Shown here piece by piece: positions 312 to 37,986 of a DNA stretch of 64,000 nucleotides. The position numbers were made by a program, and so were the translations under genes. This DNA is from a virus. Taxonomy: Duplodnaviria; Heunggongvirae; Uroviricota; Caudoviricetes. The notes under the pieces were generated by a model. The model ran no database searches. It had not been told where the DNA came from and saw only the letters and a list, made by a program, of their open reading frames with translations. The DNA lies in IMG/VR virus record IMGVR_UViG_3300009093_000042, positions 1 to 64,000 of that record; one strand, given 5' to 3'. Positions within the stretch are counted from its first letter, which is position 1; the number at the start of each line of letters is the position of its first letter.

Positions 312-874
312 GCGCGTCCGGGGATGGAGCGTTCATGGCGTTCGAAGGACATTGGACTGGGCTTGTCCTCCATGTCCTTTTTCTTCTGCGCTTCGGTCAT
401 CTTTTTGATGGCCGGTCCGGTGAGACGGCGGATGTCAAAATCATGGCAGCGGACCATGCCGCCGCTTTTATCGCGCTCGCCCTGGGGTTGAACGTTGACG
501 TGTAGGCATCCGCTCATGAAAAGGACGAGGCCAATCGCGGTGCCCTTAAATCCGGTCGCGGTGTCTTCGACCTGCGTGCCGAGAATGTGCAGAGGGAGGT
601 CACTGGGAAGTGGAATAACTTCACCGCCCTTGATGCGCGTGGGCACGATCCAGTGCATCTTGATCGGTTCGCGTGTTTCTCTGTCCAGGCCCTTCGGCTG
701 GAAGCAATAGCTGTGGGTGAAGTCCATTCCGATTTCCATCAGCGTGATCATGCCTTTCATGTCGCTGGCGGTATCGGTGACCATGCCGCCGAGTTTGAAC
801 ATCGTGGCAGGAGTGACTGTGACTGGAGTTTCAGGAGTTTTAGGAGTTTTGGTGGTTGATGGTTTTGGAGGCAT
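308..874 (-). CDS. hypothetical protein (188 aa)
   Basis: Long minus ORF. Conserved TGTTTACA promoter-like motif abuts its ATG at 875-892. Overlapping plus ORF 90..491 looks antisense (R/A/L-rich). Confidence 0.55.
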   Translation of the reverse strand: MPPKPSTTKTPKTPETPVTVTPATMFKLGGMVTDTASDMKGMITLMEIGMDFTHSYCFQPKGLDRETREPIKMHWIVPTRIKGGEVIPLPSDLPLHILGTQVEDTATGFKGTAIGLVLFMSGCLHVNVQPQGERDKSGGMVRCHDFDIRRLTGPAIKKMTEAQKKKDMEDKPSPMSFERHERSIPGRA

Positions 875-16838: not shown

Positions 16839-18299
16839 TCACAGCTTTCGGTCGCGGATCGCCTGGGCCAGTTTGGAACCAATCATGGTCAGTGCCTTGT
16901 AGTACTCCTCGCTCAGGTGATTCTCGCTGTACTCGTGGCCGAACTCGTGGATGATCAGGTCATCAATTTCCTGCTGGTTCGTCTCACGATTGAACCAGTC
17001 GTAGCCGAGCCGACCGACGTTGAACACCAGGGTCCCGCTCGGGCCGTAAGTGGCACCGTAGGGCCAGGTTGCTTCCGCCGCAAAGACCACGCTGATACTT
17101 TTGCCGAGCACGATCCGGGCGAACGCTTTGGCGTAAGTTTCCACGTGCTGCATCCCGACCGTTACTTCCTTGACCAGCTTCAATGGCGCGCCGTCCGGGC
17201 TGTAGGGCTTGGGTGAAGGCGTGACCTGACCGGCAGGCAGCATCGCGCCCACGCTCTTGACGTTACTCCAGGCGGCCTTGCTGAGCTGATTGCCGGTGAC
17301 CACCGTGAAGCCAGCGGCAGCGGCACGGCTGTTGGATTCGATGTCGGACGGATCGTAGATGACGCGTTTCTCACCGAAGCGCTGAGTCATGCACGCCTCG
17401 ACCGCTGCGGGTGCGATGTCCGGTGAAGTCAAAGCTTCAGCGGCCCAGGACGTGTTGGCATCCTCGCTGTCGATGATTGTTGACATGTTATTCACAGCGG
17501 CTACTGCGAGCTGTTTTCGGAAGGAAGGCAGGACTTCTTCACGGTCCATCGTGAGCGGAACTTTCTGACCCACGTTGAAGATGTATTTGCCGTCGATCTC
17601 GCACACGGGTATCCCCATCTCGTAGATGGCAGCCGGGCAGCCTTCGCCGGGAACAGCGCGGTAAACTTCCACATTCGTCAGCCGGGTGGTTTTGACCATG
17701 TTGCCTTCACCGTCAGCGACCTCAGTGGCCAGGGCAGCTTTGAATCGCGTCATGCCCGGCGCACTGACGAGGGCTTTGCCGTTGATAGTCGTGATGATGG
17801 TCTTTTCGCCAACCGGAGGAATCAGCCGAGCGCAGGCATTTACAATCTGGTCGATCTCGTCCTTTTTCACGCGAATCATCATTGAGATCACCGAACCCTT
17901 TTCCCGCTTCAATCCTGGCGACCGTTGCCTGCCGTGTTTGGTAAAATTGACGGTGCCGGTGGTTGTGGAGACGCAGGCTTCTGAAGCGAGGGCCAGCACC
18001 AGCTTCTCGCCGAGGTTGAACCGACCGCGCTTTTCCGGGTTGGCCTTTTTCTTGGACTCAGCGAACAAGGTGTAGGCGTGCGTGAGGTCAGAGAATCCAT
18101 CCGGCGCATCGTCCGTCACACGCAGCATCGCCTGGCCAGGATACCCCGGCACCGACTCAAGCGTGACATCGACCTGAGTGACGCCTTCTTCGTCCCAGGC
18201 ATTCTGGATCAGTTCAAAGATAATGAACTCCTTGCCCTTGCGCTGGAGGATTTTCGCCAGCCCGTCTTTGTCTATTTCAAACCATGATGAAGTTTTCAT
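16839..18299 (-). CDS. GHKL (Bergerat-fold) ATPase fused to a C-terminal HExxH zincin-like motif
   Basis: N-box FELIQNAWDE, G1-like VTDDAPDGF, G2-like RGRFNLGEK, then IIHEFGHEYSENH near the C-terminus. ORF-track start 18317 is TTG inside the promoter. First ATG at 18299 sits 7 nt from a TACAAT -10 box. Confidence 0.6.
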   Translation of the reverse strand: MKTSSWFEIDKDGLAKILQRKGKEFIIFELIQNAWDEEGVTQVDVTLESVPGYPGQAMLRVTDDAPDGFSDLTHAYTLFAESKKKANPEKRGRFNLGEKLVLALASEACVSTTTGTVNFTKHGRQRSPGLKREKGSVISMMIRVKKDEIDQIVNACARLIPPVGEKTIITTINGKALVSAPGMTRFKAALATEVADGEGNMVKTTRLTNVEVYRAVPGEGCPAAIYEMGIPVCEIDGKYIFNVGQKVPLTMDREEVLPSFRKQLAVAAVNNMSTIIDSEDANTSWAAEALTSPDIAPAAVEACMTQRFGEKRVIYDPSDIESNSRAAAAGFTVVTGNQLSKAAWSNVKSVGAMLPAGQVTPSPKPYSPDGAPLKLVKEVTVGMQHVETYAKAFARIVLGKSISVVFAAEATWPYGATYGPSGTLVFNVGRLGYDWFNRETNQQEIDDLIIHEFGHEYSENHLSEEYYKALTMIGSKLAQAIRDRKL

Positions 18300-18349
18300 A
18301 CTCAGGATTGTAAACAATTACAGTCCAATGTCAATACACAAAGTGTATT
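18300..18349 (-). promoter_or_regulatory. promoter with -35 TTGACA, -10 TACAAT, near-leaderless start, plus upstream ATACAC-AAA-GTGTAT palindrome
   Basis: Minus strand CACTTTGTGTATTGACA-N16-TACAAT-CCTGAGT-ATG. Perfect 6-bp inverted repeat at 18335-18349. Confidence 0.55.
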
Positions 18350-19103: not shown

Positions 19104-19621
19104 ATCGCTTCTTTCGCTAGAACCAGCTCCACTTTCTCGACGCCGATTTTGCGTTGATCTCTCCACCAGCTTTCACGCCCCCAGTTGATGGCTAGGAGCT
19201 GCGCTTTCGCGGGGTCGTTGGCATACACTCCAATGCTGACTTTGGGAGCGGAGTCGCCCCACAGCGTGACATGATAGTCAAACGCACCGGACCCGATATG
19301 AAGCAGGTCGCGGCGTTCGGCTTCCTCCGCTGTGATCGTCGGGAAATCGGTAGGCGCTGGAATTGTGCTCCAGGACTGTGAGGTCGGGAGCGACTTGATT
19401 CCCTGCGGGCGCTTCCGACTGCAATACTTTCCATCCTTGGCGACCATTTTACCGGAGAGCAGATCAATCACGACGCCTTTGAATTTAGCCGTGTATTCGC
19501 ACGCTGATTTTATATCAAAGTGCCGGTCGCGGGCGACCCAGTGATTGAATCGTCCGATCCAGGAGAAGACGAGATAGTTGCAGGGGCGTTTGTCGGTGAT
19601 GGTTTGGGTGATAGTGTTCAT
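19100..19621 (-). CDS. hypothetical protein (173 aa)
   Basis: Minus ORF coupled to both neighbours. Confidence 0.5.
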   Translation of the reverse strand: MNTITQTITDKRPCNYLVFSWIGRFNHWVARDRHFDIKSACEYTAKFKGVVIDLLSGKMVAKDGKYCSRKRPQGIKSLPTSQSWSTIPAPTDFPTITAEEAERRDLLHIGSGAFDYHVTLWGDSAPKVSIGVYANDPAKAQLLAINWGRESWWRDQRKIGVEKVELVLAKEAI

Positions 19622-20622
19622 TATGCTGGCGGGTTGAAGTTTTCGTAAACAAATCGTTCAGTGTCGTCCACAGATAGTCCGGCTGCGGTAGCTGCTTTCC
19701 AGAGAGCCGAGCTGCGTTGGTCTTCTGCGCTGATGTCGCGGCGTTCGCGGAGACCTGGATTGGCTGCGAAGATCGCTTCCCATCTGGCAACGTCTTCGGG
19801 GTTGTGCTTCGTAATGGTGAATTTGGCCGGGCGTTTCCAGAAGCCGAATAGCTCGTCGTTTTTGCTTGGCTCGAACGTGGCGGTAAATTCCACTTCATCA
19901 CCCTTGCGCGGGAACATCACCTGGCCAGCGGCGTTGTATTCAGGAGCATTGCCGAAGGCGCGCACACCGTTGCCGAAGTCGATGGTGAGCTTGGTGACCA
20001 TTTTCCGAGGATCGAAGCCAGGAATAGTTTTGGTGGACAGGACAGTGCCTTTGACTGTGTGGCGGCCACTGAGAGCTTTGCCGGTCGCGGAGGCACGGCG
20101 CGCTTCGTCTTTTTCGCGGATGCTTTCGAGGGTGGTGATCTGCTTCTCGGACAGCTCACCGAAACGGCGCATCTTTTCCAGCATGTCCTTGGCGATCTTG
20201 GGAGCACGGGCCAGGCGGCACCAGCCGATGATGCTCATCGCCTCGGGGTGCGCGGTCAAGAAATCAGCTTCGCGCTTATTGCAAGCCAGGCGCTCGGCGA
20301 GGGCCACAGTGTGCTGTGCGATCATTCTGTCGAACCGGCGCAGATTTTCCACCTTGGCGGCACAGTCACGGCCAACCCAGTAGCCGGTGCCCGTGGGCGC
20401 GTGGACAATGGCGCAGGCGTACTTGAGAGTGTGGCCGCAACAGCCGCAGCGATTGGGTTGGTTTTGAGCTTTGAAAGTCTGCCAGAGCGGTTCGTCGATG
20501 ACATCCATCTCAGCCTCGACTGATCCATTTTCTCCTGCGTCCGGGTTGAAGCCGAGGACCACGCAGACAGCAACGAGCCGGAGTTCGTTCACCGGCAGTC
20601 CTTTAATAGATTCGTTTGTCAT
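19621..20622 (-). CDS. hypothetical protein (333 aa)
   Basis: Leaderless-type promoter (TTGACA-N16-TACATT-N6-ATG) upstream. Confidence 0.55.
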   Translation of the reverse strand: MTNESIKGLPVNELRLVAVCVVLGFNPDAGENGSVEAEMDVIDEPLWQTFKAQNQPNRCGCCGHTLKYACAIVHAPTGTGYWVGRDCAAKVENLRRFDRMIAQHTVALAERLACNKREADFLTAHPEAMSIIGWCRLARAPKIAKDMLEKMRRFGELSEKQITTLESIREKDEARRASATGKALSGRHTVKGTVLSTKTIPGFDPRKMVTKLTIDFGNGVRAFGNAPEYNAAGQVMFPRKGDEVEFTATFEPSKNDELFGFWKRPAKFTITKHNPEDVARWEAIFAANPGLRERRDISAEDQRSSALWKAATAAGLSVDDTERFVYENFNPPA

Positions 20623-20675
20623 GCCAGAAATGTAAACGAAATAGAATTGTTGTCAATACCCAAAGTGTAAATAGT
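20623..20675 (-). promoter_or_regulatory. promoter with -35 TTGACA, -10 TACATT, near-leaderless start
   Basis: Minus strand CACTTTGGGTATTGACA-N16-TACATT-TCTGGC-ATG. Shares GTATTGACA upstream context with the promoter at 18300-18349. Confidence 0.55.
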
Positions 20676-20744
20676 GAGAAATTTAATACCTCGTTGTAAG
20701 TGGCCTAACGACCGTAGTTAATGCGTGGTAATAGTGGATCGGGT

Positions 20745-20782
20745 GGGTGCCCGGCCCTCTTAGGGTTGGAGGGCCGGGTTTG
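20745..20782. other. strong GC hairpin (CCCGGCCCTC-ttagggttg-GAGGGCCGGG) followed by TTTGTTGG
   Basis: 10-bp perfect stem. Its role as a terminator versus a leader structure of the small plus ORF is unclear. Confidence 0.4.
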
Positions 20783-20793
20783 TTGGAGTGCGT

Positions 20794-20988
20794 ATGAAAT
20801 TTCGCTTAATAGCAGCACCGGTTGAGCGAGGGGACCTAAACAGGATTTTCTCTCTGTTCGAAGTCGCGCAATTCCTCGAAATAGCTGTTGAAGACCTGGC
20901 CCTGCGCGGAAAACTCTCGGGAAACGTCAGCCTGGATGGCTATACTTTCGAGGTTGTTCGCAGCGTGCAGGGTTCAAGTTTCAAATAG
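20794..20988 (+). CDS. hypothetical small protein (plus strand)
   Basis: GGAG sits 5 nt upstream of the ATG. Preceded by a strong GC hairpin. Convergent with the HerA-like gene. Confidence 0.25.
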   Translation: MKFRLIAAPVERGDLNRIFSLFEVAQFLEIAVEDLALRGKLSGNVSLDGYTFEVVRSVQGSSFK

Positions 20989-22734
20989 CGTTGCGCTGGC
21001 TCGGATTCTCAGCTCGCGATCCTGTTCCATCAGGTCGGGAGCGCGCAGGGCTGTTAGCGCGTTTCCAAACGTGCTGGAGTTCACGCTGTATCCCGTCGCG
21101 TCTGAAATCTCCTGGCGCGTGGCAAACTCCGGGAAGCGCGTCAGCAGGTAACTGAAAATCTTTCCCGCTGCGCCGCTCAGCTTATTCACCCAGAGATTTC
21201 TCAGAGCTTCACCTTTTGGCAACGGTTCAAAGTTTTTCAACAGGGCGCGAGCCTCGGGTATTGCAGTCAGCGTGTCGCCGCTGCGGATGATCGCGTTGTT
21301 TTTGGAAAGCTCGGTCAGCCCGTTGCCGAACGTGCTTGAAGTCACGCTGTAGCCGGATAGAAGCGCGGCCTGGCTGCGGGTCCGCCCTTCGGGATAACTG
21401 AGCAGCACGGTCAGAATCGCTGACGCACACTTGGAAAGTCCACCCGAGGATGGATCATGCACCGGCGATGAAAAATCGTGCCGAGTGGCGACAACTGGAG
21501 CCGGGATCGCCTTGGGTGCTACCGGTGTCGCAACCGCCATACTCGTCTTCTGGATCACGATCAATTTGTTTACAATATCGGTGCGTAGCGCTACCGCCTG
21601 ATTGGCCAGCTCAGAGAAGTTCACCACCGTCTTGCTGAAAGTAGTGCAGGCTTCCTCGATTCGCTTCAGAGTTTTTTCCTGCTCGGGCGTTAGCACGGGA
21701 ACTTCGACCTTTTCGATTCGCGTGTCCACGACCGTCACCGGCCTGGGCGCGACAGCGGCCTGTTCCGCTTTTACCAGCTTTTGTTTCAAAACAGCCACTT
21801 GTTGTTTCAAATGGGCCGGATCATTCTCGTTGGCGCGCTCAATCGTTTCACGAATCTCATTTCCCAGGCGCACGAGATCGACCTTGGCCAGCTTTTGCGG
21901 GATGATGACTTTTTCACCTGCCTTGGGCGTGGCTGATGAGTTGAAGGTCCGGCGCTGCCGGATGGTGATCCGTTGAAAGATGCGCAGCCAGCCGGGCGAC
22001 CATATCCAGCCCTCGCCGGTGTGAAGCGATGCCAGGGACTGCATCATGATGTCGCGCTGTTCCTTCGTGCCGTTGCGCTTCACCCAATCGTCGATGGCGT
22101 CCTGGTCCTGGGGCGAGTTGAGCTGAAGTACGATCAACAGTTCGGTCTGAGTGAAGACATTCTTATTGAGCACAGCCGGGCGCTGCGTGATCAGCGTCGT
22201 GCCAATCCCACGGATGCCTCCCCGGCGCACCAGGGCTTCGAAGGCTCCGAGCATTCGCTGCTGGCCGTCCTGGGGTTTCTGGGGAGCGAAAGAGTCGGCT
22301 TCGTCCACGAACAGGTGCAGCGGATTGCGGTTTTGATTTTTACGCCGGTAGAGGCGTTCGGCAAAGTCAGTGGCGAAGCGATCCTGCTGTGCGTTGCTTT
22401 CGGTCGAGGAGAGGTCGATGACGTAGTAGCCAGGATGGTCAACCACCATGTCGGCGATGACCCGGCCTGCCGTATATTCCAGTGGAACGTCCGCGTGCTC
22501 ACCGCCGATGATCACCACTGGCAAACCTTCGCGCAGACCGTTTGCTGATGAACGCAGGCCCCACCAGGCACCGGTCGGATCGAGCACGGCAAACGGCTGT
22601 GACGCCGCCACCAGCTCCTCGGCGATCACCGATCCTGTGTAGGTCTTACCGACCCGGCGCATGGCCATGATGGAACACGTCTGGGTGACGAAATCCAACG
22701 GCAGCGTCAGTTCCTTTGAGATTTTGAGGCTCAT
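20974..22734 (-). CDS. HerA/FtsK-superfamily P-loop NTPase (DUF87-like) with tandem C-terminal winged-helix-like repeats
   Basis: Walker A MAMRRVGKTY, AVLDPTGAWWGL, Walker B LHLFVDEADSF, and GIRGIGTTLITQRP. Two C-terminal repeats GYSV(T/N)SSTFGN(G/A)LT. Confidence 0.6.
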   Translation of the reverse strand: MSLKISKELTLPLDFVTQTCSIMAMRRVGKTYTGSVIAEELVAASQPFAVLDPTGAWWGLRSSANGLREGLPVVIIGGEHADVPLEYTAGRVIADMVVDHPGYYVIDLSSTESNAQQDRFATDFAERLYRRKNQNRNPLHLFVDEADSFAPQKPQDGQQRMLGAFEALVRRGGIRGIGTTLITQRPAVLNKNVFTQTELLIVLQLNSPQDQDAIDDWVKRNGTKEQRDIMMQSLASLHTGEGWIWSPGWLRIFQRITIRQRRTFNSSATPKAGEKVIIPQKLAKVDLVRLGNEIRETIERANENDPAHLKQQVAVLKQKLVKAEQAAVAPRPVTVVDTRIEKVEVPVLTPEQEKTLKRIEEACTTFSKTVVNFSELANQAVALRTDIVNKLIVIQKTSMAVATPVAPKAIPAPVVATRHDFSSPVHDPSSGGLSKCASAILTVLLSYPEGRTRSQAALLSGYSVTSSTFGNGLTELSKNNAIIRSGDTLTAIPEARALLKNFEPLPKGEALRNLWVNKLSGAAGKIFSYLLTRFPEFATRQEISDATGYSVNSSTFGNALTALRAPDLMEQDRELRIRASATLFET

Positions 22735-22754: not shown

Positions 22755-22994
22755 TTACTTTACTTCCAGGACGACGCGAAATTGGGCCAGACCACAGTTG
22801 GTGCAGCGCCGGAACTGGATGAATTGAGCGTTTTTGCCGTTGTTCTCGTCCGGGTCAGGATCGCCCCATTGACCCCATTCGTGGGTGTGGACGACTTCAG
22901 GATTTGCGGGGTGGACGTGGACGGCGAGGAGCGCGGTTCCTCCGACCACCAGGATTAGGGCCGCCAGAAGCGGCAGAAAGACTTTTTTCTTCAT
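22755..22994 (-). CDS. small membrane-anchored protein with CxxC
   Basis: N-terminus MKKKVFLPLLAALILVVGG and a CTNCG motif. Confidence 0.4.
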   Translation of the reverse strand: MKKKVFLPLLAALILVVGGTALLAVHVHPANPEVVHTHEWGQWGDPDPDENNGKNAQFIQFRRCTNCGLAQFRVVLEVK

Positions 22995-26520: not shown

Positions 26521-27207
26521 TTAGGCGAGTTGAACCACCGCGAGATCGCTGATCTTGAAAACCGGAACGCCAAAGTTCCAACTGACGTTGATGTGGTCCA
26601 TGATTCCATTGGCAGCTTCGTTCACCAGCAGGTTTCCTGGCGTCTGAAAGCCGTGACCCGCGATAACGGGATTACCACTGACCACCTGGGCGTCAAAAGT
26701 AGCTTTGCTAACATCGACGCAGTTGTTGTCAGTGTTTCTGAAATAGCTCAGCGTCCACTGCGTGGGTCCCTTCTGGATGTCCACGAACAGCACCGTTCGA
26801 TTATTATCAGTCGCACCGATGCACCAGGTCGAAGGCTCCATATCGACGCCGACGCTGGAAACGTTCACGCCGTTGACAAAGCAGCTTCCTGATGAGAAGG
26901 AGCACCCGTACTGAGTGACGGGACTTGTCGCTCGGATAAACGTTGCGAAGTTCCCGACCCAGTTCATGCCCACAGCGTGGTGCGGGGCGGCTCCAGGATC
27001 ACCCCAGATGCTCGTATCGCCATTGCACGCTAGAACATTGAAACTGGCCGGGTTTATATTTCCTCCTGAGTCAGACATGCAAAGCCGCATCCCGATGCGC
27101 AATTTCTGCCACGCTTGGCCGACCATGAAAAAGGGTTGCCGAGCAAAACGACTGCTATCGAGGATGAGCCGATTTTCTCCGCCGACACTTGAGATAATTG
27201 CTGACAT
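26521..27207 (-). CDS. virion-associated protein, tandem paralog B
   Basis: Paralog of 25825..26517. Confidence 0.55.
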   Translation of the reverse strand: MSAIISSVGGENRLILDSSRFARQPFFMVGQAWQKLRIGMRLCMSDSGGNINPASFNVLACNGDTSIWGDPGAAPHHAVGMNWVGNFATFIRATSPVTQYGCSFSSGSCFVNGVNVSSVGVDMEPSTWCIGATDNNRTVLFVDIQKGPTQWTLSYFRNTDNNCVDVSKATFDAQVVSGNPVIAGHGFQTPGNLLVNEAANGIMDHINVSWNFGVPVFKISDLAVVQLA

Positions 27208-35410: not shown

Positions 35411-35917
35411 TCAGCTTGGGGAGGCTGGTGAGGTTGATGCGACCGGTGGCGGTAATTCGCCCGGTTGGTCTTCCGGTAAGGGCATAGCCGCCATTACTGC
35501 CACCTGCCGCCGCGTGACTCCCTGGCGCGCCCAGATTGCCGTGGCCAGGAGATTGTTGATGGCGATGGTCTGTTCCTTGCCTTCCGGCACTTCCTCCGCG
35601 ATGGCGAGCGCCAGTTCGCGGCAGGCGTTTTGGATTCGTTCGCATGATGCTAGGGTTTGACTGGACATCGGGGCGTTGAAAACGAAAACGTCGTTTACTT
35701 CGGCTTTGATGTCTTCCGGGGTTATGGGTGTTCGGGCGGTTTCAGTATTCATATTGGATAGAACCATTTTCAATCCGAAAAAGTTCTCCAGGTGGATGAT
35801 TTTTTCAGTTTTCGTGTCCGCGATGACCAGGTGGATGCTTTCGAAGGCTCCTTCTCCGATGGAAAGGAAGCTGGCTTCAACTGTTTCTGACAGAGGAATT
35901 TTTCCAATGAGTTTCAT
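35411..35917 (-). CDS. hypothetical protein (168 aa)
   Basis: 4-nt overlap with the terminase gene. Confidence 0.5.
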   Translation of the reverse strand: MKLIGKIPLSETVEASFLSIGEGAFESIHLVIADTKTEKIIHLENFFGLKMVLSNMNTETARTPITPEDIKAEVNDVFVFNAPMSSQTLASCERIQNACRELALAIAEEVPEGKEQTIAINNLLATAIWARQGVTRRQVAVMAAMPLPEDQPGELPPPVASTSPASPS

Positions 35918-37986
35918 GTGACTTTGAAGGTTTTGATGCGTTCGTAGCCGGGCGGCAGGTTAATTTCGACGGGCGGTTTTTCCAGGATAATAGATTCGAA
36001 CTCGCGGTTGAGATGCACGCGAGGGTTGTTCGACGCCATCATCGTCGCCTTTTCCTCAGAATTGATGGCGTTGTAATAAGAACCAGCGCAGGCGTCGGTC
36101 GTGTCTTTGCTGCCCTTGTCCGGGTGATCCACCTTTTTGTCGCCATCGAGCAGCTTTTCCGCTTCCTGCATCATGTGCCGGTGAGCGTAGGGGCGCAGGC
36201 GGTGTTCTTCAATGGCCATTCTCCAGGCGATGTACGCGTCTTTATTGCGGTCCACGCTCTGCTTGTCCACTTTGAACCCACGCGCTTCAAGCATCTGGAG
36301 CTGTTGATCGCTCTGGTATTGATCGTACGTGATCAGGCCAAAGTTGTAGCCACATTCGTCGCGCAACCAGATCAGGAAATTCTGGACCTTTTCCAGCGAT
36401 ATGGGCTTTACCTGACCGGCGATGACCGTGAGGATGAAATCGTATTCCACGATCAGTCGATACTCGGAATAGGGCATCACGTCGCCGGGCCGGATGGTGT
36501 TCTCGATGAGCTGCGTCCCTACCAGATGAGAGATGGCGATACCGGCCATGCTGGTGGTCGCCAAGTCGATGTGTGCGTAGCGAAGCTGGCCGGGGTGGCG
36601 CTTGGGCATCGTCTGGGAGGCGATGCGGTGGCAGAAGGCGCGGTGCTCCAGGTAATGCCAGAGCTGCTTGGTGTCCTCGGTCGAGAGCGGTAGGAGTTCC
36701 ATTCCGTTTTCGCCCTTTTCCACTGGGTTTACGACGCCGTCCTTTTCGGCCAACTCCACGCACATTTCAAAATCGACCATGGACGCAAACCAGCGGTTGG
36801 TGCCTCCGGTTGAGATTCCGCACACATCCCGCAAGGCGTTTAGCGGTCGTCGCTTGAACTCATCCAGGTACATGACTGGCACCAATTCAACAGACGCGCC
36901 ACGCGGCGGGTCTTCCCACGGGCCTTCACCGATCTGTTTGGCATCCTCGTTGTAGTATCCCTTGAGGATCATCGGGATCATGTTCTTGAGGCCGTAGCTG
37001 ACCTTGAACCATTTCGGACCAAGCTGAAGGGTGTGCCGCTTAATTTTGTAAACAGAATTGCGATAGACCTTCTGGCAAGAGGGATCGTTCGCTTTGTTGA
37101 TTTCGGTGATGACGGTTTCCGTGAAGGAGGACTCGTCCTTCGCCGACGATGCCAGGATCGAGATCGCGGGCAGGTAACCGGCGACCTTACGAAAGCGGTT
37201 ATTGATACGATTGCGGACTTCGTTGAAAAGCTCGTATGCCTTGTTGTCCGGCTCCGCTTCCAAGCGCCAGTTACCTTCGTCCAGTCCGACGCCGATGATG
37301 TTACGACCGAGCAAGTGCTGGCCCCGCGAACCTGCGGTCAAGATGATAGACCCTTTCAGCGGGATGCGAAATCCGCTGTACTGCGAATCAGGGTTGTACT
37401 TGCACTGTTCCAGAAAGTACGGCGAGTTGGCCATGAAATTCATGGCATCACCAAATGCTGTTTCAGTCACGGCGGCCTTCGTGACAGACAGAAGGTTGAA
37501 AATGATCTTGGTGCCTTTGGTGAGGCCGAAGAAATTGTGCGGGTTGCGCAGCAGCGTGGCGATCAGCACCCGGTAAAGGAGGATGGTCACCATGATGAAC
37601 GTTTTGCCGATACCCAGTGATCCAGTGATGACGCAGTTGTGGATGGCACTGTCGTAATTGAAATCGCGGCAAAGGATTTCTTTCCAGGCCGGGAACATGC
37701 CTTCGCTGTCCTGGCTCTTGGTCATCAGGCTCCCGAGATAGTACGGGTCGTCGAGGAACTGCTGCATGGTGGGAGGAATCTCAGTGTAGTCCACCATCTT
37801 GAGCTGGTCATTGATCTCCGACTTGCCGGACGCCCGATACTGATTGAGCATGTCTTCCCACACCTGACGTGCGTACGGCGACAATGACGAAAGCATCGGG
37901 TCAATGTTTTCCCCCTCAAGTCCGCGAGAGAGAATATCTTCCAACGTTTCCGTCAACGTTTTTTTGTTTACATTTACTTCAGGCAT
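35914..37986 (-). CDS. terL: terminase large subunit
   Basis: Walker A GSLGIGKT and Walker B IIGVGLDEGNW in the N-terminal half. RNaseH-like nuclease half (YAHIDLATTSMAGIA ... YDFILTV). 690 aa. Confidence 0.65.
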   Translation of the reverse strand: MPEVNVNKKTLTETLEDILSRGLEGENIDPMLSSLSPYARQVWEDMLNQYRASGKSEINDQLKMVDYTEIPPTMQQFLDDPYYLGSLMTKSQDSEGMFPAWKEILCRDFNYDSAIHNCVITGSLGIGKTFIMVTILLYRVLIATLLRNPHNFFGLTKGTKIIFNLLSVTKAAVTETAFGDAMNFMANSPYFLEQCKYNPDSQYSGFRIPLKGSIILTAGSRGQHLLGRNIIGVGLDEGNWRLEAEPDNKAYELFNEVRNRINNRFRKVAGYLPAISILASSAKDESSFTETVITEINKANDPSCQKVYRNSVYKIKRHTLQLGPKWFKVSYGLKNMIPMILKGYYNEDAKQIGEGPWEDPPRGASVELVPVMYLDEFKRRPLNALRDVCGISTGGTNRWFASMVDFEMCVELAEKDGVVNPVEKGENGMELLPLSTEDTKQLWHYLEHRAFCHRIASQTMPKRHPGQLRYAHIDLATTSMAGIAISHLVGTQLIENTIRPGDVMPYSEYRLIVEYDFILTVIAGQVKPISLEKVQNFLIWLRDECGYNFGLITYDQYQSDQQLQMLEARGFKVDKQSVDRNKDAYIAWRMAIEEHRLRPYAHRHMMQEAEKLLDGDKKVDHPDKGSKDTTDACAGSYYNAINSEEKATMMASNNPRVHLNREFESIILEKPPVEINLPPGYERIKTFKVT

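Follow-up and report, generated by a model that had tools for sequence, protein, structure and literature searches.

Tailed phages are thought to move DNA with a terminase and replication helicases only. The stretch of phage DNA that we analyzed (64 kb at its full length, hereafter the window) carries a large-terminase gene and, apart from it, a gene for a 586-aa protein that an earlier note on this DNA had taken for an ATPase with tandem winged-helix repeats at its C terminus. This raises the question of what a second DNA motor might do in a phage that already has a terminase. The open reading frame exactly matches the span given in the earlier note, an identical copy of the protein is present on a 245-kb contig, and full-length relatives share 45-80% identity with it.

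A compact motor core of the HerA clade

We found that the 586-aa protein is an ATPase of the FtsK-HerA superfamily, that it belongs to the HerA clade, and that its motifs are intact. It has the features by which the superfamily is recognized, namely an ASCE core, a Walker A motif, a Walker B motif of the hhhhDE form, and an (S/T)QRP motif, and these align residue by residue to solved HerA proteins. The earlier note had read the Walker A, Walker B, and TQRP motifs in the sequence, and all three hold, with key residues that are invariant across the 63-sequence family alignment (Table 1). It had placed the protein more broadly in the DUF87/HerA/FtsK/VirB4 clade, which our searches narrow to HerA. 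A profile search against the PDB matched the core to the HerA chains of 9x1l (E = 1e-17), 4d2i (5e-10), and 8xau (6e-9), and Foldseek matched the core of the AlphaFold model (overall pLDDT 89.5) to the HerA of HerA-NurA complexes (9x1m, 5e-14; 4d2i, 1e-12; probability 1.00) and further to Sir2-HerA, DUF4297-HerA, and STIV2 B204. Each of these proteins is either a ring-forming DNA translocase or a packaging NTPase. FtsK chains were absent both from the PDB profile matches and from the top 50 fold matches.

HerA in the strict sense (NF040819, or PF01935 with PF05872) requires an N-terminal HAS barrel, which is absent from the model. The chain enters the core sheet directly, with no N-terminal domain before it, and because Walker A begins at residue 24 we conclude that the ATPase has no HAS-barrel domain. 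The dedicated family models scored correspondingly: the NCBIfam equivalog helicase_HerA, with a cut-off of 970 bits, gave 47.4 and matched only aa 117-244, and Pfam HerA_C, with a cut-off of 22 bits, gave 14.4.

Directly after the core lies a conserved, family-specific segment (T263-P270) that is neither helix nor strand in the model and yet is confidently placed (pLDDT about 91-93); it was also selected as a peptide pattern that defines the family. The long-helix tether that comes next varies in sequence and length from member to member, and its alignment consensus consists mostly of "x."

Table 1. Positions of the ATPase gene, its parts, and nearby features in the 64-kb window.
Feature	Position	Strand	Basis and remarks
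Whole ATPase gene	20974..22734	-	586 aa; HerA-clade ATPase with predicted C-terminal tandem wHTH
Compact ASCE/RecA-like ATPase core, aa 1-260	21955..22734	-	AF2 model, pLDDT 94-98; no HAS barrel, no helix-bundle insert
Walker A, A24-MRRVGK-T31	22642..22665	-	Sequence reading; A24, G29, K30 invariant in 63-sequence alignment
Walker B, H140-LFVDE-A146	22297..22317	-	D144, E145 invariant (63 sequences); aligns to HerA Walker B of 9x1l, 8xau, 4d2i
TQRP sensor/arginine motif, T183-QRP186 (aa 183-186)	22177..22188	-	Q184, R185 invariant (63 sequences); aligns to SQRP of solved HerAs
Conserved extended segment, T263-FNSSAT-P270	21925..21948	-	T263, S266, T269, P270 invariant; F264, S267 nearly invariant
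Long-helix tether, aa 287-397	21544..21876	-	Model helices 287-303, 306-328, 350-397
Disordered linker, aa 398-429	21448..21543	-	pLDDT < 50 in model
Predicted wHTH module 1, aa 435-498; recognition segment 461-482	21241..21432	-	Three helices and beta hairpin, pLDDT 92-97
Predicted wHTH module 2, aa 509-584; recognition segment 548-569	20983..21210	-	Same fold and family evidence as module 1; internal repeat of module 1
Perfect 10-bp-stem hairpin 3' of ATPase gene, probable terminator	20750..20778	.	Inverted repeat, 100% complementary, 9-nt loop
Sigma-70-like promoter TTGACA-16-TACATT, before gene 19621..20622	20629..20656	-	10/12 consensus matches; consensus match only
Large terminase of the phage	35914..37986	-	690 aa; AF2 model pLDDT 78.5, Foldseek

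Paired C-terminal modules and the DNA around the gene

At the C terminus, the earlier note had described two repeats of about 45 aa and interpreted them as winged-helix DNA-binding modules. The repeat itself is real, with a local BLOSUM62 score of 86 versus 24.6 ± 5.1 in 1000 shuffles (z about 12), and it is found throughout the 63-sequence alignment. The winged-helix interpretation also agrees with the fold, since DSSP on the model gives the order H-H-H-E-E twice, and with Pfam; only the size needs correction, as each module measures about 65-75 aa (model elements 435-491 and 509-579), and the peptides that had been quoted are its residues 461-482 and 548-569. In family members these regions match MarR_2 (8 of 23 members, best 1e-5), HTH_45 (down to 1e-6), HrcA, and IclR, and the best PDB profile matches of the modules, though weak (E = 0.012), are MarR regulators. 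FtsK_gamma was absent among the Pfam families listed for the modules. Judged from the model and these matches, the C-terminal modules are MarR-like winged helix-turn-helix (wHTH) domains.

The recognition segments of the two modules are 68% identical within a protein versus 40-46% between proteins, and the best partner of a first repeat is its own second repeat in 44 of the 63 proteins. The ATPase core, in the same comparison, has a pairwise identity of 69%. By this comparison of sequences, the two wHTH heads co-evolve within each protein, and their similarity argues that they read element-specific DNA sites. Gene conversion between the repeats could partly account for the pattern, and wHTH domains are also able to make contacts with other proteins.

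We found no iteron-like repeats adjoining the ATPase gene and no over-represented or polar KOPS-like 8-10-mers in the 64-kb window (maximum z of 2.3). In the window and in two relatives (L002 and L006), the gene is followed by a gap of about 350-415 bp, and in most other relatives this gap is absent. We considered it as an origin, a binding-site array, or a noncoding RNA and rejected all three, as in the window it holds only the hairpin, the promoter-like site, and a nonconserved reverse ORF of 66 aa, with no iterons and no Rfam match. The hairpin was not picked up by a consensus terminator scan.

MarR-like wHTH modules are a usual feature of transcription factors, and the gene of compact relatives stands where early and late genes meet, so that the protein might be imagined as an ATP-dependent regulator of late genes, with the wHTH pair bound to promoters and the ATPase remodeling the complex. 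We regard this as the least probable of the roles that we weighed. To our knowledge, no FtsK-HerA ATPase is a transcription regulator, the window holds no repeated intergenic motif, and conservation is complete in the motor motifs, the inter-subunit arginine region among them, which points to ring translocase chemistry.

A genuine large terminase encoded elsewhere

The earlier note had left packaging to a terL gene at some distance from the ATPase, and it had named as the outcome that would overturn its view an alternative packaging ATPase accompanied by a terL that is something else. The product of that gene has no Pfam, PHROG, NCBIfam, or PDB sequence match (phmmer and profile search against the PDB), and its identity was resolved by fold search only. 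Foldseek placed the TerL of HK97 (2e-10) and T4 gp17 (5e-9) on top, with further matches to the TerLs of PhiV-1, Sf6, and D6E and to the nuclease domains of G20c and P22. The annotated terL thus folds as a genuine large terminase; its relatives carry inteins and sit on contigs of 200-255 kb. Because the phage has this TerL elsewhere, we conclude that the HerA-type ATPase is not its packaging motor.

It is also very improbable, in our judgment, that the ATPase is an alternative packaging component, acting either as a further packaging ATPase or as a functional stand-in for the small terminase, with the wHTH pair reading pac or cos. Such a role would fit the superposition of the core on packaging NTPases of membrane viruses (B204, TMt 0.69-0.76; PH1, 0.78) and the position of the gene in compact relatives, where it precedes TerL on the same strand by 2.2-8 kb. 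It would also fit a mild enrichment near contig ends, which is weak in numbers (9 versus 3.6 expected, p = 0.012; 7 versus 3.6, p = 0.08), and the best PHROG match, phrog_2666 (3.7e-15), which is labeled "terminase large subunit." However, the relatives also have standard TerL, portal, and TerS genes (phrog_83; L019 and L078 have their own), they coexist with TerLs of the GpA, TerL_ATPase, and Terminase_6 types, and in the complete phage MW202482.1 a relative occurs alongside an annotated terminase. The ATPase gene never adjoins TerL and does not have the marks of a TerS, its product has no nuclease domain in the model and so does not show the RNase-H-like nuclease fusion of a TerL, and relatives on plasmid regions have annotated flanks without packaging genes. 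Packaging NTPases of the PRD1/STIV/A32 type belong to viruses that have a double-jelly-roll capsid with an inner membrane and are without a terminase, whereas this phage and its relatives have TerL and the relatives a portal as well. The label of phrog_2666 is probably misleading for this family.

Gene neighborhood and the search for partner genes

Across the family, the ATPase gene usually lies between replication/recombination genes and genes for methylases, TerS, TerL, and portal. Its upstream neighbors in relatives include YqaJ, SF1 helicase, DnaB, ParB, and primase-helicase/SSB genes; downstream it is followed by methylase, TerL, and portal genes, and the strand is the same in every case. 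The jumbo phage differs, with the gene among tail-fiber-like and uncharacterized genes, downstream of TerL and away from this seam between replication and packaging, so that the argument from position comes from the smaller relatives.

We found no conserved partner gene at +1 or -1 in 76 loci, and again none in 146 loci. This bears on the main idea of the earlier note, in which the protein is a HerA-NurA-like helicase for end resection or recombination that works with a neighboring nuclease. The closest solved structures are indeed the HerA subunits of HerA-NurA complexes, and a YqaJ-type recombination exonuclease is often encoded upstream in relatives. In HerA, however, NurA docks on the HAS barrel, and this ATPase has no such domain. 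A NurA-like nuclease had been suggested for one or other flanking ORF, and neither gave a nuclease match: the 79-aa ORF (22755..22994) has only sub-threshold, unrelated Pfam matches, and the 333-aa ORF (19621..20622) has no match in Pfam, NCBIfam, PADLOC, or the PDB. Even the closest jumbo-phage relatives do not keep the latter beside the ATPase, and the +1 gene varies among them; the C-terminal domain of the 333-aa ORF is present in 276 cultured phages without this ATPase. We consider the HerA-NurA-like role improbable and already largely refuted.

The earlier note had also pointed to HerA ATPases as cores of Sir2-HerA and DUF4297-HerA defense systems. No Sir2, DUF4297, or nuclease effector is conserved next to the ATPase in the 146 loci, and the lack of any partner gene there argues against two-gene defense systems of this type. 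PADLOC returned nothing for the neighbors except two marginal TmtA matches (E = 0.005-0.008) in a 492-aa ORF.

A different connection to defense is that the motor might act for the element itself, as an establishment or counter-defense factor or in superinfection exclusion, by stripping, displacing, or blocking DNA-targeting proteins of the host or of rivals or by supporting adjacent modification enzymes. The recurrent neighbors (DNA methyltransferases of the C5, N6_N4, and D12 types, ParB-N proteins, DUF5131, and HNH) make up a typical anti-restriction and establishment gene set of phages and plasmids, and the ATPase has partial PADLOC matches to HerA models and to mad8 of the methylation-associated defense system (1e-16 to 4e-11). 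These matches, however, cover only the half from Walker B to the sensor, which is common to all HerA-like ATPases. In addition, the core is unusually conserved across hosts of many phyla, which is easier to reconcile with a universal DNA substrate than with an arms-race target, and such a factor would have no obvious need for sequence-specific heads. We find a role of this kind unlikely.

A large family carried by mobile elements

The family comprises 6,139 clusters at E ≤ 1e-30, and its architecture is constant in all diverged variants and in the best 150 of these clusters. The wHTH pair occurs only together with this ATPase. When we looked for other architectures bearing the same pair, the stand-alone matches proved to be fragments, either split copies adjoining an ATPase ORF or genes cut by contig ends. 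Carriers are mainly tailed phages, together with prophages of many phyla and actinobacterial plasmids, including large mycobacterial and Clavibacter plasmids, and we conclude that the family is specific to mobile elements (tailed phages, prophages, and large plasmids).

Members are now labeled generically as "DUF87" or "HerA-like," on plasmid records as elsewhere, and ten NCBI-sourced members have no protein name. Our literature search found no characterized member. Neither the Sam46 TerS-FtsK_gamma work, nor that on Thermus TdtA, nor the polyvalent-protein survey describes this family, and text matches to "HerA" in the Virtus paper turned out to be the word "Heraklion." As judged from the modeled architecture, this is a large family without prior study that joins a compact HerA-type motor to two matched, predicted DNA-binding heads.

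Its occurrence on plasmids and its position within replication/recombination modules, or at their end, suggest another role, that of an origin-binding replication initiator or helicase, or a partition-type NTPase, in which the wHTH pair would sit on an origin- or centromere-like site while the ring melts, unwinds, or moves DNA. The apparently element-specific reading of the heads would suit such a role; moreover, one relative (L035) has a PHROG "replication initiation protein" two genes downstream, and the wHTH of one member weakly matches Phage_rep_O (1.3e-3). Still, we think it rather unlikely. Replicative helicases of the DnaB-like, primase-helicase, or AAA_25 kinds are already nearby in relatives, no iterons or AT-rich repeat arrays adjoin the gene in the window, and we know of no replicative initiator in the FtsK-HerA superfamily. 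Partition, in turn, fits poorly with the conserved synteny of the probably lytic jumbo-phage clade.

Discussion

Our preferred reading, to which we would give not quite an even chance, is that the protein is a stand-alone, ring-forming translocase for double-stranded DNA (dsDNA) that is loaded at specific sites. By homology to solved hexamers, the core would assemble into a ring, probably a hexamer, and move along dsDNA with ATP. The tethered wHTH pair may read a DNA sequence that is particular to each element and is either repeated or made of two half-sites, and by this recognition the motor would be loaded or oriented on the DNA of its own element, following the logic of FtsK gamma at KOPS and Streptomyces TraB at clt repeats. 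With less weight, the position of the gene makes a replication- or recombination-associated role plausible, in which replicated phage DNA would be the substrate of the motor as replication and recombination give way to modification and packaging. At that stage it might clear, move, or resolve DNA before the terminase takes over.

Comparison with known systems shows both the kinship of this motor and its distinct design. Its clade, by profile and by fold, is that of the archaeal and bacterial HerA of HerA-NurA (4d2i, 9x1l/9x1m), with Walker A, Walker B, and (S/T)QRP aligned, and by analogy it probably works in the same mode, as a ring translocase on dsDNA. Unlike that HerA, it has no HAS barrel, no helix-bundle insert between Walker A and B, and no NurA, and it adds a tether and two predicted wHTH modules that HerA does not have. 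Defense HerAs (Sir2-HerA, 8wiv/8sub; DUF4297-HerA, 8ziq/9c1m; TdpA, 8wet) and mad8 have the RecA-like core in common with it. They function, however, only as two-gene systems in which an effector docks on the HerA ring, whereas the phage ATPase has no conserved effector or partner and is carried by phages and plasmids themselves. Against the packaging NTPases of membrane viruses (STIV2 B204, PH1, Corticoviridae, and A32-like), the phage core covers nearly all of their 200-240 aa or so (TMt 0.69-0.79). These NTPases are the sole packaging motors of tailless, terminase-free viruses, whereas the phage ATPase exists beside a TerL in a tailed phage and exceeds them by about 325 aa of tether and wHTH heads.

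The closest parallels in design come from other clades. In FtsK/SpoIIIE, a motor is joined by a flexible linker to a C-terminal winged helix that reads KOPS/SRS and thereby loads or orients the motor (PMC8190038). The phage ATPase appears to follow the same design logic (superfamily motor, linker, and DNA-reading winged helix), although it has neither a membrane anchor nor an alpha domain, its heads are MarR-like with two per subunit, and the window contains no dense polar KOPS-like motif. The conjugative TraB of Streptomyces, an FtsK-like motor with a C-terminal wHTH for clt repeats, is a single-protein dsDNA pump of a mobile element, whose C-terminal DNA-recognition domain directs it to the element that encodes it (PMC5365140), and the phage ATPase may be likened to it in each of these respects. 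TraB, however, is membrane-bound and of the FtsK clade, the phage family is mainly in tailed phages, and its gene in the window has no adjoining clt-like repeat array. Thermus TdtA, an ICE-encoded, HerA-like hexameric ATPase for DNA donation and a proposed dsDNA pump, is of the classical HerA type, having been identified via its HAS-barrel motif and having a NurA-family nuclease beside it (PMC5365140); the phage ATPase has neither.

It is possible, and we say this more tentatively than we do of the translocase itself, that these proteins form an overlooked class of sequence-reading DNA motor of phages and plasmids, in which a HAS-less HerA ring with twelve co-evolving wHTH heads would recognize element-specific sites and pump, orient, or clear the element's own genome, making it the viral equivalent of FtsK/KOPS or TraB/clt. 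A compact motor with swappable, co-evolving heads would offer a natural system for the study of site-specific loading of ring translocases, and experiments are feasible, since relatives have cultivable carriers (Mycolicibacterium, with M. rhodesiae JS60; Nocardia, with N. salmonicida NBRC 13393; Microbacterium; Leptospira, with L. ainazelensis; and Clavibacter, with plasmid pCSL1). Our results also allow a better annotation of a family that now bears generic labels. A second, highly conserved motor for dsDNA that appears to be targeted by sequence points to an unrecognized step of DNA transaction in mobile elements, and the lineages concerned are thousands of phages, prophages, and plasmids across many bacterial phyla. 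If the reading as an overlooked class of motor is true, thousands of tailed phages would share a widespread and overlooked step between replication and packaging, or in the establishment of their genomes.

A HerA-type core without the HAS barrel

The three ATPase motifs proposed in an earlier note from sequence alone were all present on direct reading, and their key residues (A24, G29, K30, D144, E145, Q184 and R185) were invariant in an alignment of 63 relatives. The same note's placement of the protein in the HerA/FtsK-type group also held, as the best profile and fold matches were HerA chains. In sequence libraries, recognition was confined to the half of the core that runs from Walker B to the sensor: Pfam HerA_C fell under its cut-off, NCBIfam HerA scored 47 bits (cut-off 970), and the PADLOC HerA and mad8 models matched at 1e-16 and 4e-11, respectively. 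Against the PDB, phmmer found HerA 9x1l at 3e-8, and a family profile found 9x1l at 1e-17, then 4d2i, 8xau, 9c1m, 8wiv, YjgR, 8ziq and 8j4u, with a faint match to STIV B204 and no FtsK, VirB4 or VirD4 chain. Among PHROGs the best match, at E 3.7e-15 over profile positions 312-505 of 555, was phrog_2666, a family labeled "terminase large subunit"; taken together, the results suggest that this name misleads, at least where proteins have this architecture.

We modeled the ATPase with AlphaFold2 from the family alignment (mean pLDDT 89.5). Foldseek ranked HerA-NurA (9x1m, 5e-14), Sulfolobus HerA (4d2i), Sir2-HerA and DUF4297-HerA highest in the PDB, and the minimal packaging NTPase B204 was almost wholly covered by the core (TMt 0.69-0.76). 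In a viral structure library the core alone found matches (PH1 ATPase, TMt 0.78; a Corticoviridae NTPase; A32-like ATPases), and no cultured-virus protein had the whole architecture. Walker A begins at residue 24, which leaves no HAS barrel ahead of it, and the roughly 110 residues from Walker A to Walker B are too few for HerA's helix-bundle insert; as modeled, the ATPase lacks both of these features, whereas HerA proper has them.

Features of the window and of related loci (L numbers)
Feature	Position	Strand	Remarks
ATPase gene	20974..22734	-	586 aa
Walker A	A24-MRRVGK-T31	-	Read directly from sequence
Walker B	H140-LFVDE-A146	-	Read directly from sequence
TQRP segment	Residues 183-186	-	Read directly from sequence
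Compact alpha/beta core	Residues 1-260		AlphaFold2 model
Conserved extended segment, invariant TFNSSATP motif			AlphaFold2 model
Long helices	Residues 287-328 and 350-397		AlphaFold2 model
Disordered stretch	Residues 398-429		AlphaFold2 model
Two modules, each three helices and a beta hairpin	Residues 435-491 and 509-579		AlphaFold2 model
Spacer after ATPase gene	20623..20973		351 bp
Perfect hairpin	20750-20778		10-bp stem; in spacer
Sigma-70-like promoter, TTGACA-16-TACATT	20656..20629	-	Consensus match, before next gene
Reverse 66-aa ORF	20788..20988	Opposite to ATPase	Non-conserved; not called on source contig
333-aa ORF	19621..20622		
79-aa ORF	22755..22994		Upstream of ATPase
TerL ORF	35914..37986	-	690 aa
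168-aa ORF	35411..35917	-	Directly downstream of TerL
Tandem paralogues, 230 and 228 aa	25825..26517 and 26521..27207	-	60% identical, E 2e-96
492-aa ORF	16839..18317	-	
SPFH/Band 7 protein, 401 aa	8982..10187	-	Pfam E 1.8e-19; phrog_200 "lipoprotein" 1.8e-34
Split family gene, L172	4719..6522		340-aa ATPase ORF, 260 bp, 173-aa wHTH-pair ORF
Split family gene, L173	4205..6015		Three consecutive overlapping ORFs (115, 255, 246 aa)
Homologue in L007 (MW202482.1)	19992..21860		622 aa; annotated "hera helicase"

Tandem winged-helix heads

Two C-terminal repeats of about 45 aa had also been described, from peptides that correspond to residues 461-482 and 548-569. Their existence was borne out: local alignment of the C-terminal halves scored 86, against 24.6 ± 5.1 in 1000 shuffles (z about 12), and both copies are kept family-wide with the consensus GYxxxSGGFxNxLxxLRxxGxI. 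Their size was not, as each measures about 65-75 aa. The modules are MarR-like winged helix-turn-helix (wHTH) domains. Pfam matched MarR_2 in 8 of 23 scanned members (best 1e-5), HrcA_DNA-bdg in 8, HTH_IclR in 7 and HTH_45 in 6 (1e-6), and the best PDB profile matches, weak at E 0.012, were MarR regulators. The wHTH pair ends every diverged variant, including those matched by BLAST over residues 1-320/380 only. Despite this kinship to regulators, an ATP-dependent transcription regulator was the least credible of the five rival explanations that we weighed.

Within a single protein, the 22-residue recognition segments of repeats 1 and 2 were 68% identical on average; between the 63 aligned proteins, equivalent segments were 40-46% identical, and the ATPase core showed 69% pairwise identity. 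In 44 of the 63, no other protein's repeat 2 matched repeat 1 better than the protein's own did. Such co-evolution would be expected of two heads that recognize one and the same, or a related, DNA half-site, with specificity tracking each element's sequence, and gene conversion between the repeats could contribute to it. A search with the wHTH pair alone returned only short proteins, and the three whose context we examined were family fragments (two adjoin an ATPase ORF, in L172 and L173, and one is clipped by a contig end); the pair therefore appears to be tied to the motor. The splits in L172 and L173 could reflect real fission of the gene, pseudogenes or frameshift errors.

A large family in phages and plasmids

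A word-indexed search gave about 2,000 family matches, with many full-length relatives at 45-80% identity, and an exhaustive profile search gave 14,678 cluster representatives (50% identity) at E <= 1e-3 and 6,139 at E <= 1e-30; among the best 150 clusters, nearly all had lengths of about 530-630 aa and aligned from one end to the other. The gene was confirmed on 195 IMG/VR stretches and found on 183 GTDB species-genome stretches, from Nitrospirota, Acidobacteriota, Planctomycetota, Verrucomicrobiota, Chloroflexota, Gemmatimonadota, Armatimonadota, Myxococcota, Actinomycetota (Mycolicibacterium, Nocardia, Microbacterium) and Leptospira. It also lies on 21 plasmids, mostly large mycobacterial ones plus Clavibacter pCSL1, where the only names given to it are "DUF87 domain-containing" and "helicase HerA-like domain-containing protein." Just 1 of 50,697 GenBank phage genomes carries it, the uncultured podovirus MW202482.1, in which a large terminase and a portal are annotated as well; this homologue has about 90 extra aa in the tether region, ahead of the wHTH pair. 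No characterized family member was found in the literature searched.

An identical ATPase lies on a 245-kb contig whose genes all share one strand, consistent with a jumbo phage. CAZSEL010000002.1 (157,878 bp, a "Chloracidobacterium" MAG; L089 and L093) holds two identical-scoring copies about 73.3 kb apart, and the same protein occurs on a 73,345-bp contig (L006); the MAG contig therefore probably represents a phage genome of roughly 73 kb that was assembled as a concatemer and binned with the bacterium.

Coexistence with a terminase

The earlier note had taken packaging to be covered by the TerL ORF. Neither sequence nor profile searches of Pfam, PHROGs, NCBIfam or the PDB matched this ORF, and it was the fold of its AlphaFold model (pLDDT 78.5) that bore the claim out. 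The first matches were HK97 TerL (2e-10) and T4 gp17 (5e-9), followed by the PhiV-1, Sf6 and D6E TerLs and the G20c and P22 nuclease domains, so the model indicates a bona fide TerL for the window phage, rather than something else under that annotation. That the ATPase is instead an alternative packaging or TerS-like factor ranked fourth among the rivals.

Relatives of this TerL sit on 200-255 kb contigs. Among those noted (P0124, P0128, P0140, P0144, P0147, P0163 and others), many are assigned to the newer Pfam family PF27249, and several, of 813-1100 aa, contain intein/homing-endonuclease domains (PF05203, PF05204, PF14528, PF14890). The 168-aa ORF has a below-threshold match to an Acb2/Tad1 hairpin domain (E 9e-4, 19.8 bits, cut-off 27) and a match to phrog_1454 (5e-8), and by sequence may be an anti-CBASS/Thoeris sponge-like protein.

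Gene neighborhood and candidate DNA targets

We predicted ORFs at every locus and grouped the neighbors into clusters, and in 146 non-redundant loci no conserved cluster occupied the +1 or -1 position. Recurrent but non-adjacent were DUF5131, tyrosine integrase, C5/N6_N4/D12 DNA methylases, ParB_N-HTH proteins, DnaB-like and SF1 helicases, YqaJ exonuclease, DUF2201/VWA proteins, three different TerL types and a portal. The order has a direction: upstream of the ATPase come genes of recombination and replication, and downstream of it methylases, TerL and portal; wherever recognizable (15 loci), TerL or portal was 2.2-8 kb downstream on the same strand, with TerS recognizable beside TerL in two of these phages. 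In L169 the ATPase gene is the last of an operon with primase-helicase, SSB, YqaJ, methylases and HIRAN. The most credible rival was an origin-binding initiator or partition-type NTPase, and the second an establishment or counter-defense factor tied to the methylase/ParB/DUF5131 neighborhood.

In the jumbo-phage clade the ATPase is syntenic, after a tail-fiber-like giant protein and before conserved 478-486-aa and 623-646-aa proteins, and the gene immediately 3' varies: 333 aa in the window, 293 aa in one relative, and 82 + 267 aa in a second. The 333-aa ORF, one of two neighbors that the earlier note wanted checked for a NurA-like nuclease, showed no NurA or other nuclease signature, and 276 cultured phages without the ATPase have a copy of this ORF's C-terminal domain. 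With neither a HAS barrel nor a conserved +1/-1 partner, the HerA-NurA-like role raised in that note is not supported, and a HerA-NurA-like resection helicase ranked third among the rivals. The 79-aa ORF starts with a hydrophobic signal- or membrane-like segment.

Among other genes nearby, the 492-aa ORF gave an under-cut-off match to a sacsin-type N-terminal ATP-binding (GHKL-like) domain (NF047352, E 3e-5) and faint PADLOC TmtA matches; in the jumbo-phage relatives a 478-486-aa protein occupies the same position downstream of the ATPase. The tandem paralogues, which closely follow a 992-aa protein with a weak CBM_5_12 match, had no family matches and may be duplicated tail-fiber/receptor-binding accessory proteins. 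On viral contigs (L008-L087, IMG/VR), the ATPase lay within 1.5 kb of the upstream end in 9 cases against 3.6 expected (p 0.012) and of the downstream end in 7 against 3.6 (p 0.08), which could reflect nearby genome termini, prophage borders or assembly breaks.

The spacer after the ATPase gene contained no iterons or Rfam matches; in L168, the closest relative with DNA, the corresponding gap measures only 107 bp. A conserved gap, seen in the window and two relatives, was rejected as coincidental, as most relatives lack it. No 8-10-mer was enriched across the 64 kb of the window (maximum z 2.3), which leaves no dense motif of the KOPS type; the heads might still have a rare loading site.

Placement and proposed role

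The ATPase is a member of the FtsK-HerA superfamily, branching with HerA. HerA proper is defined by its HAS barrel, NurA partner and curated cut-offs, and the ATPase fails on all three. It likewise failed the defining tests for FtsK, TerL, TerS, a sole-motor packaging NTPase and a defense HerA system, the last of which argues against the Sir2-HerA or DUF4297-HerA defense reading. We would classify it as a phage- and plasmid-specific motor of HerA type that lacks the HAS barrel and carries tandem wHTH heads.

This family combines an intact HerA-clade motor core with a tethered, co-evolving wHTH pair, is carried by mobile elements, and coexists with TerL and TerS without a partner gene. By analogy with solved relatives, the core would form a ring and translocate double-stranded DNA at the expense of ATP. 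The heads would load or orient the motor at specific sites, as heads do in FtsK gamma/KOPS and TraB/clt (PMC8190038, PMC5365140), and gene position hints that the ATPase might act on replicated element DNA, between replication/recombination and modification/packaging. Although the domain calls will not surprise a specialist, the size, conservation, head co-evolution and cultivable carriers of this entirely unstudied family mean that a concrete question can be put to the test.
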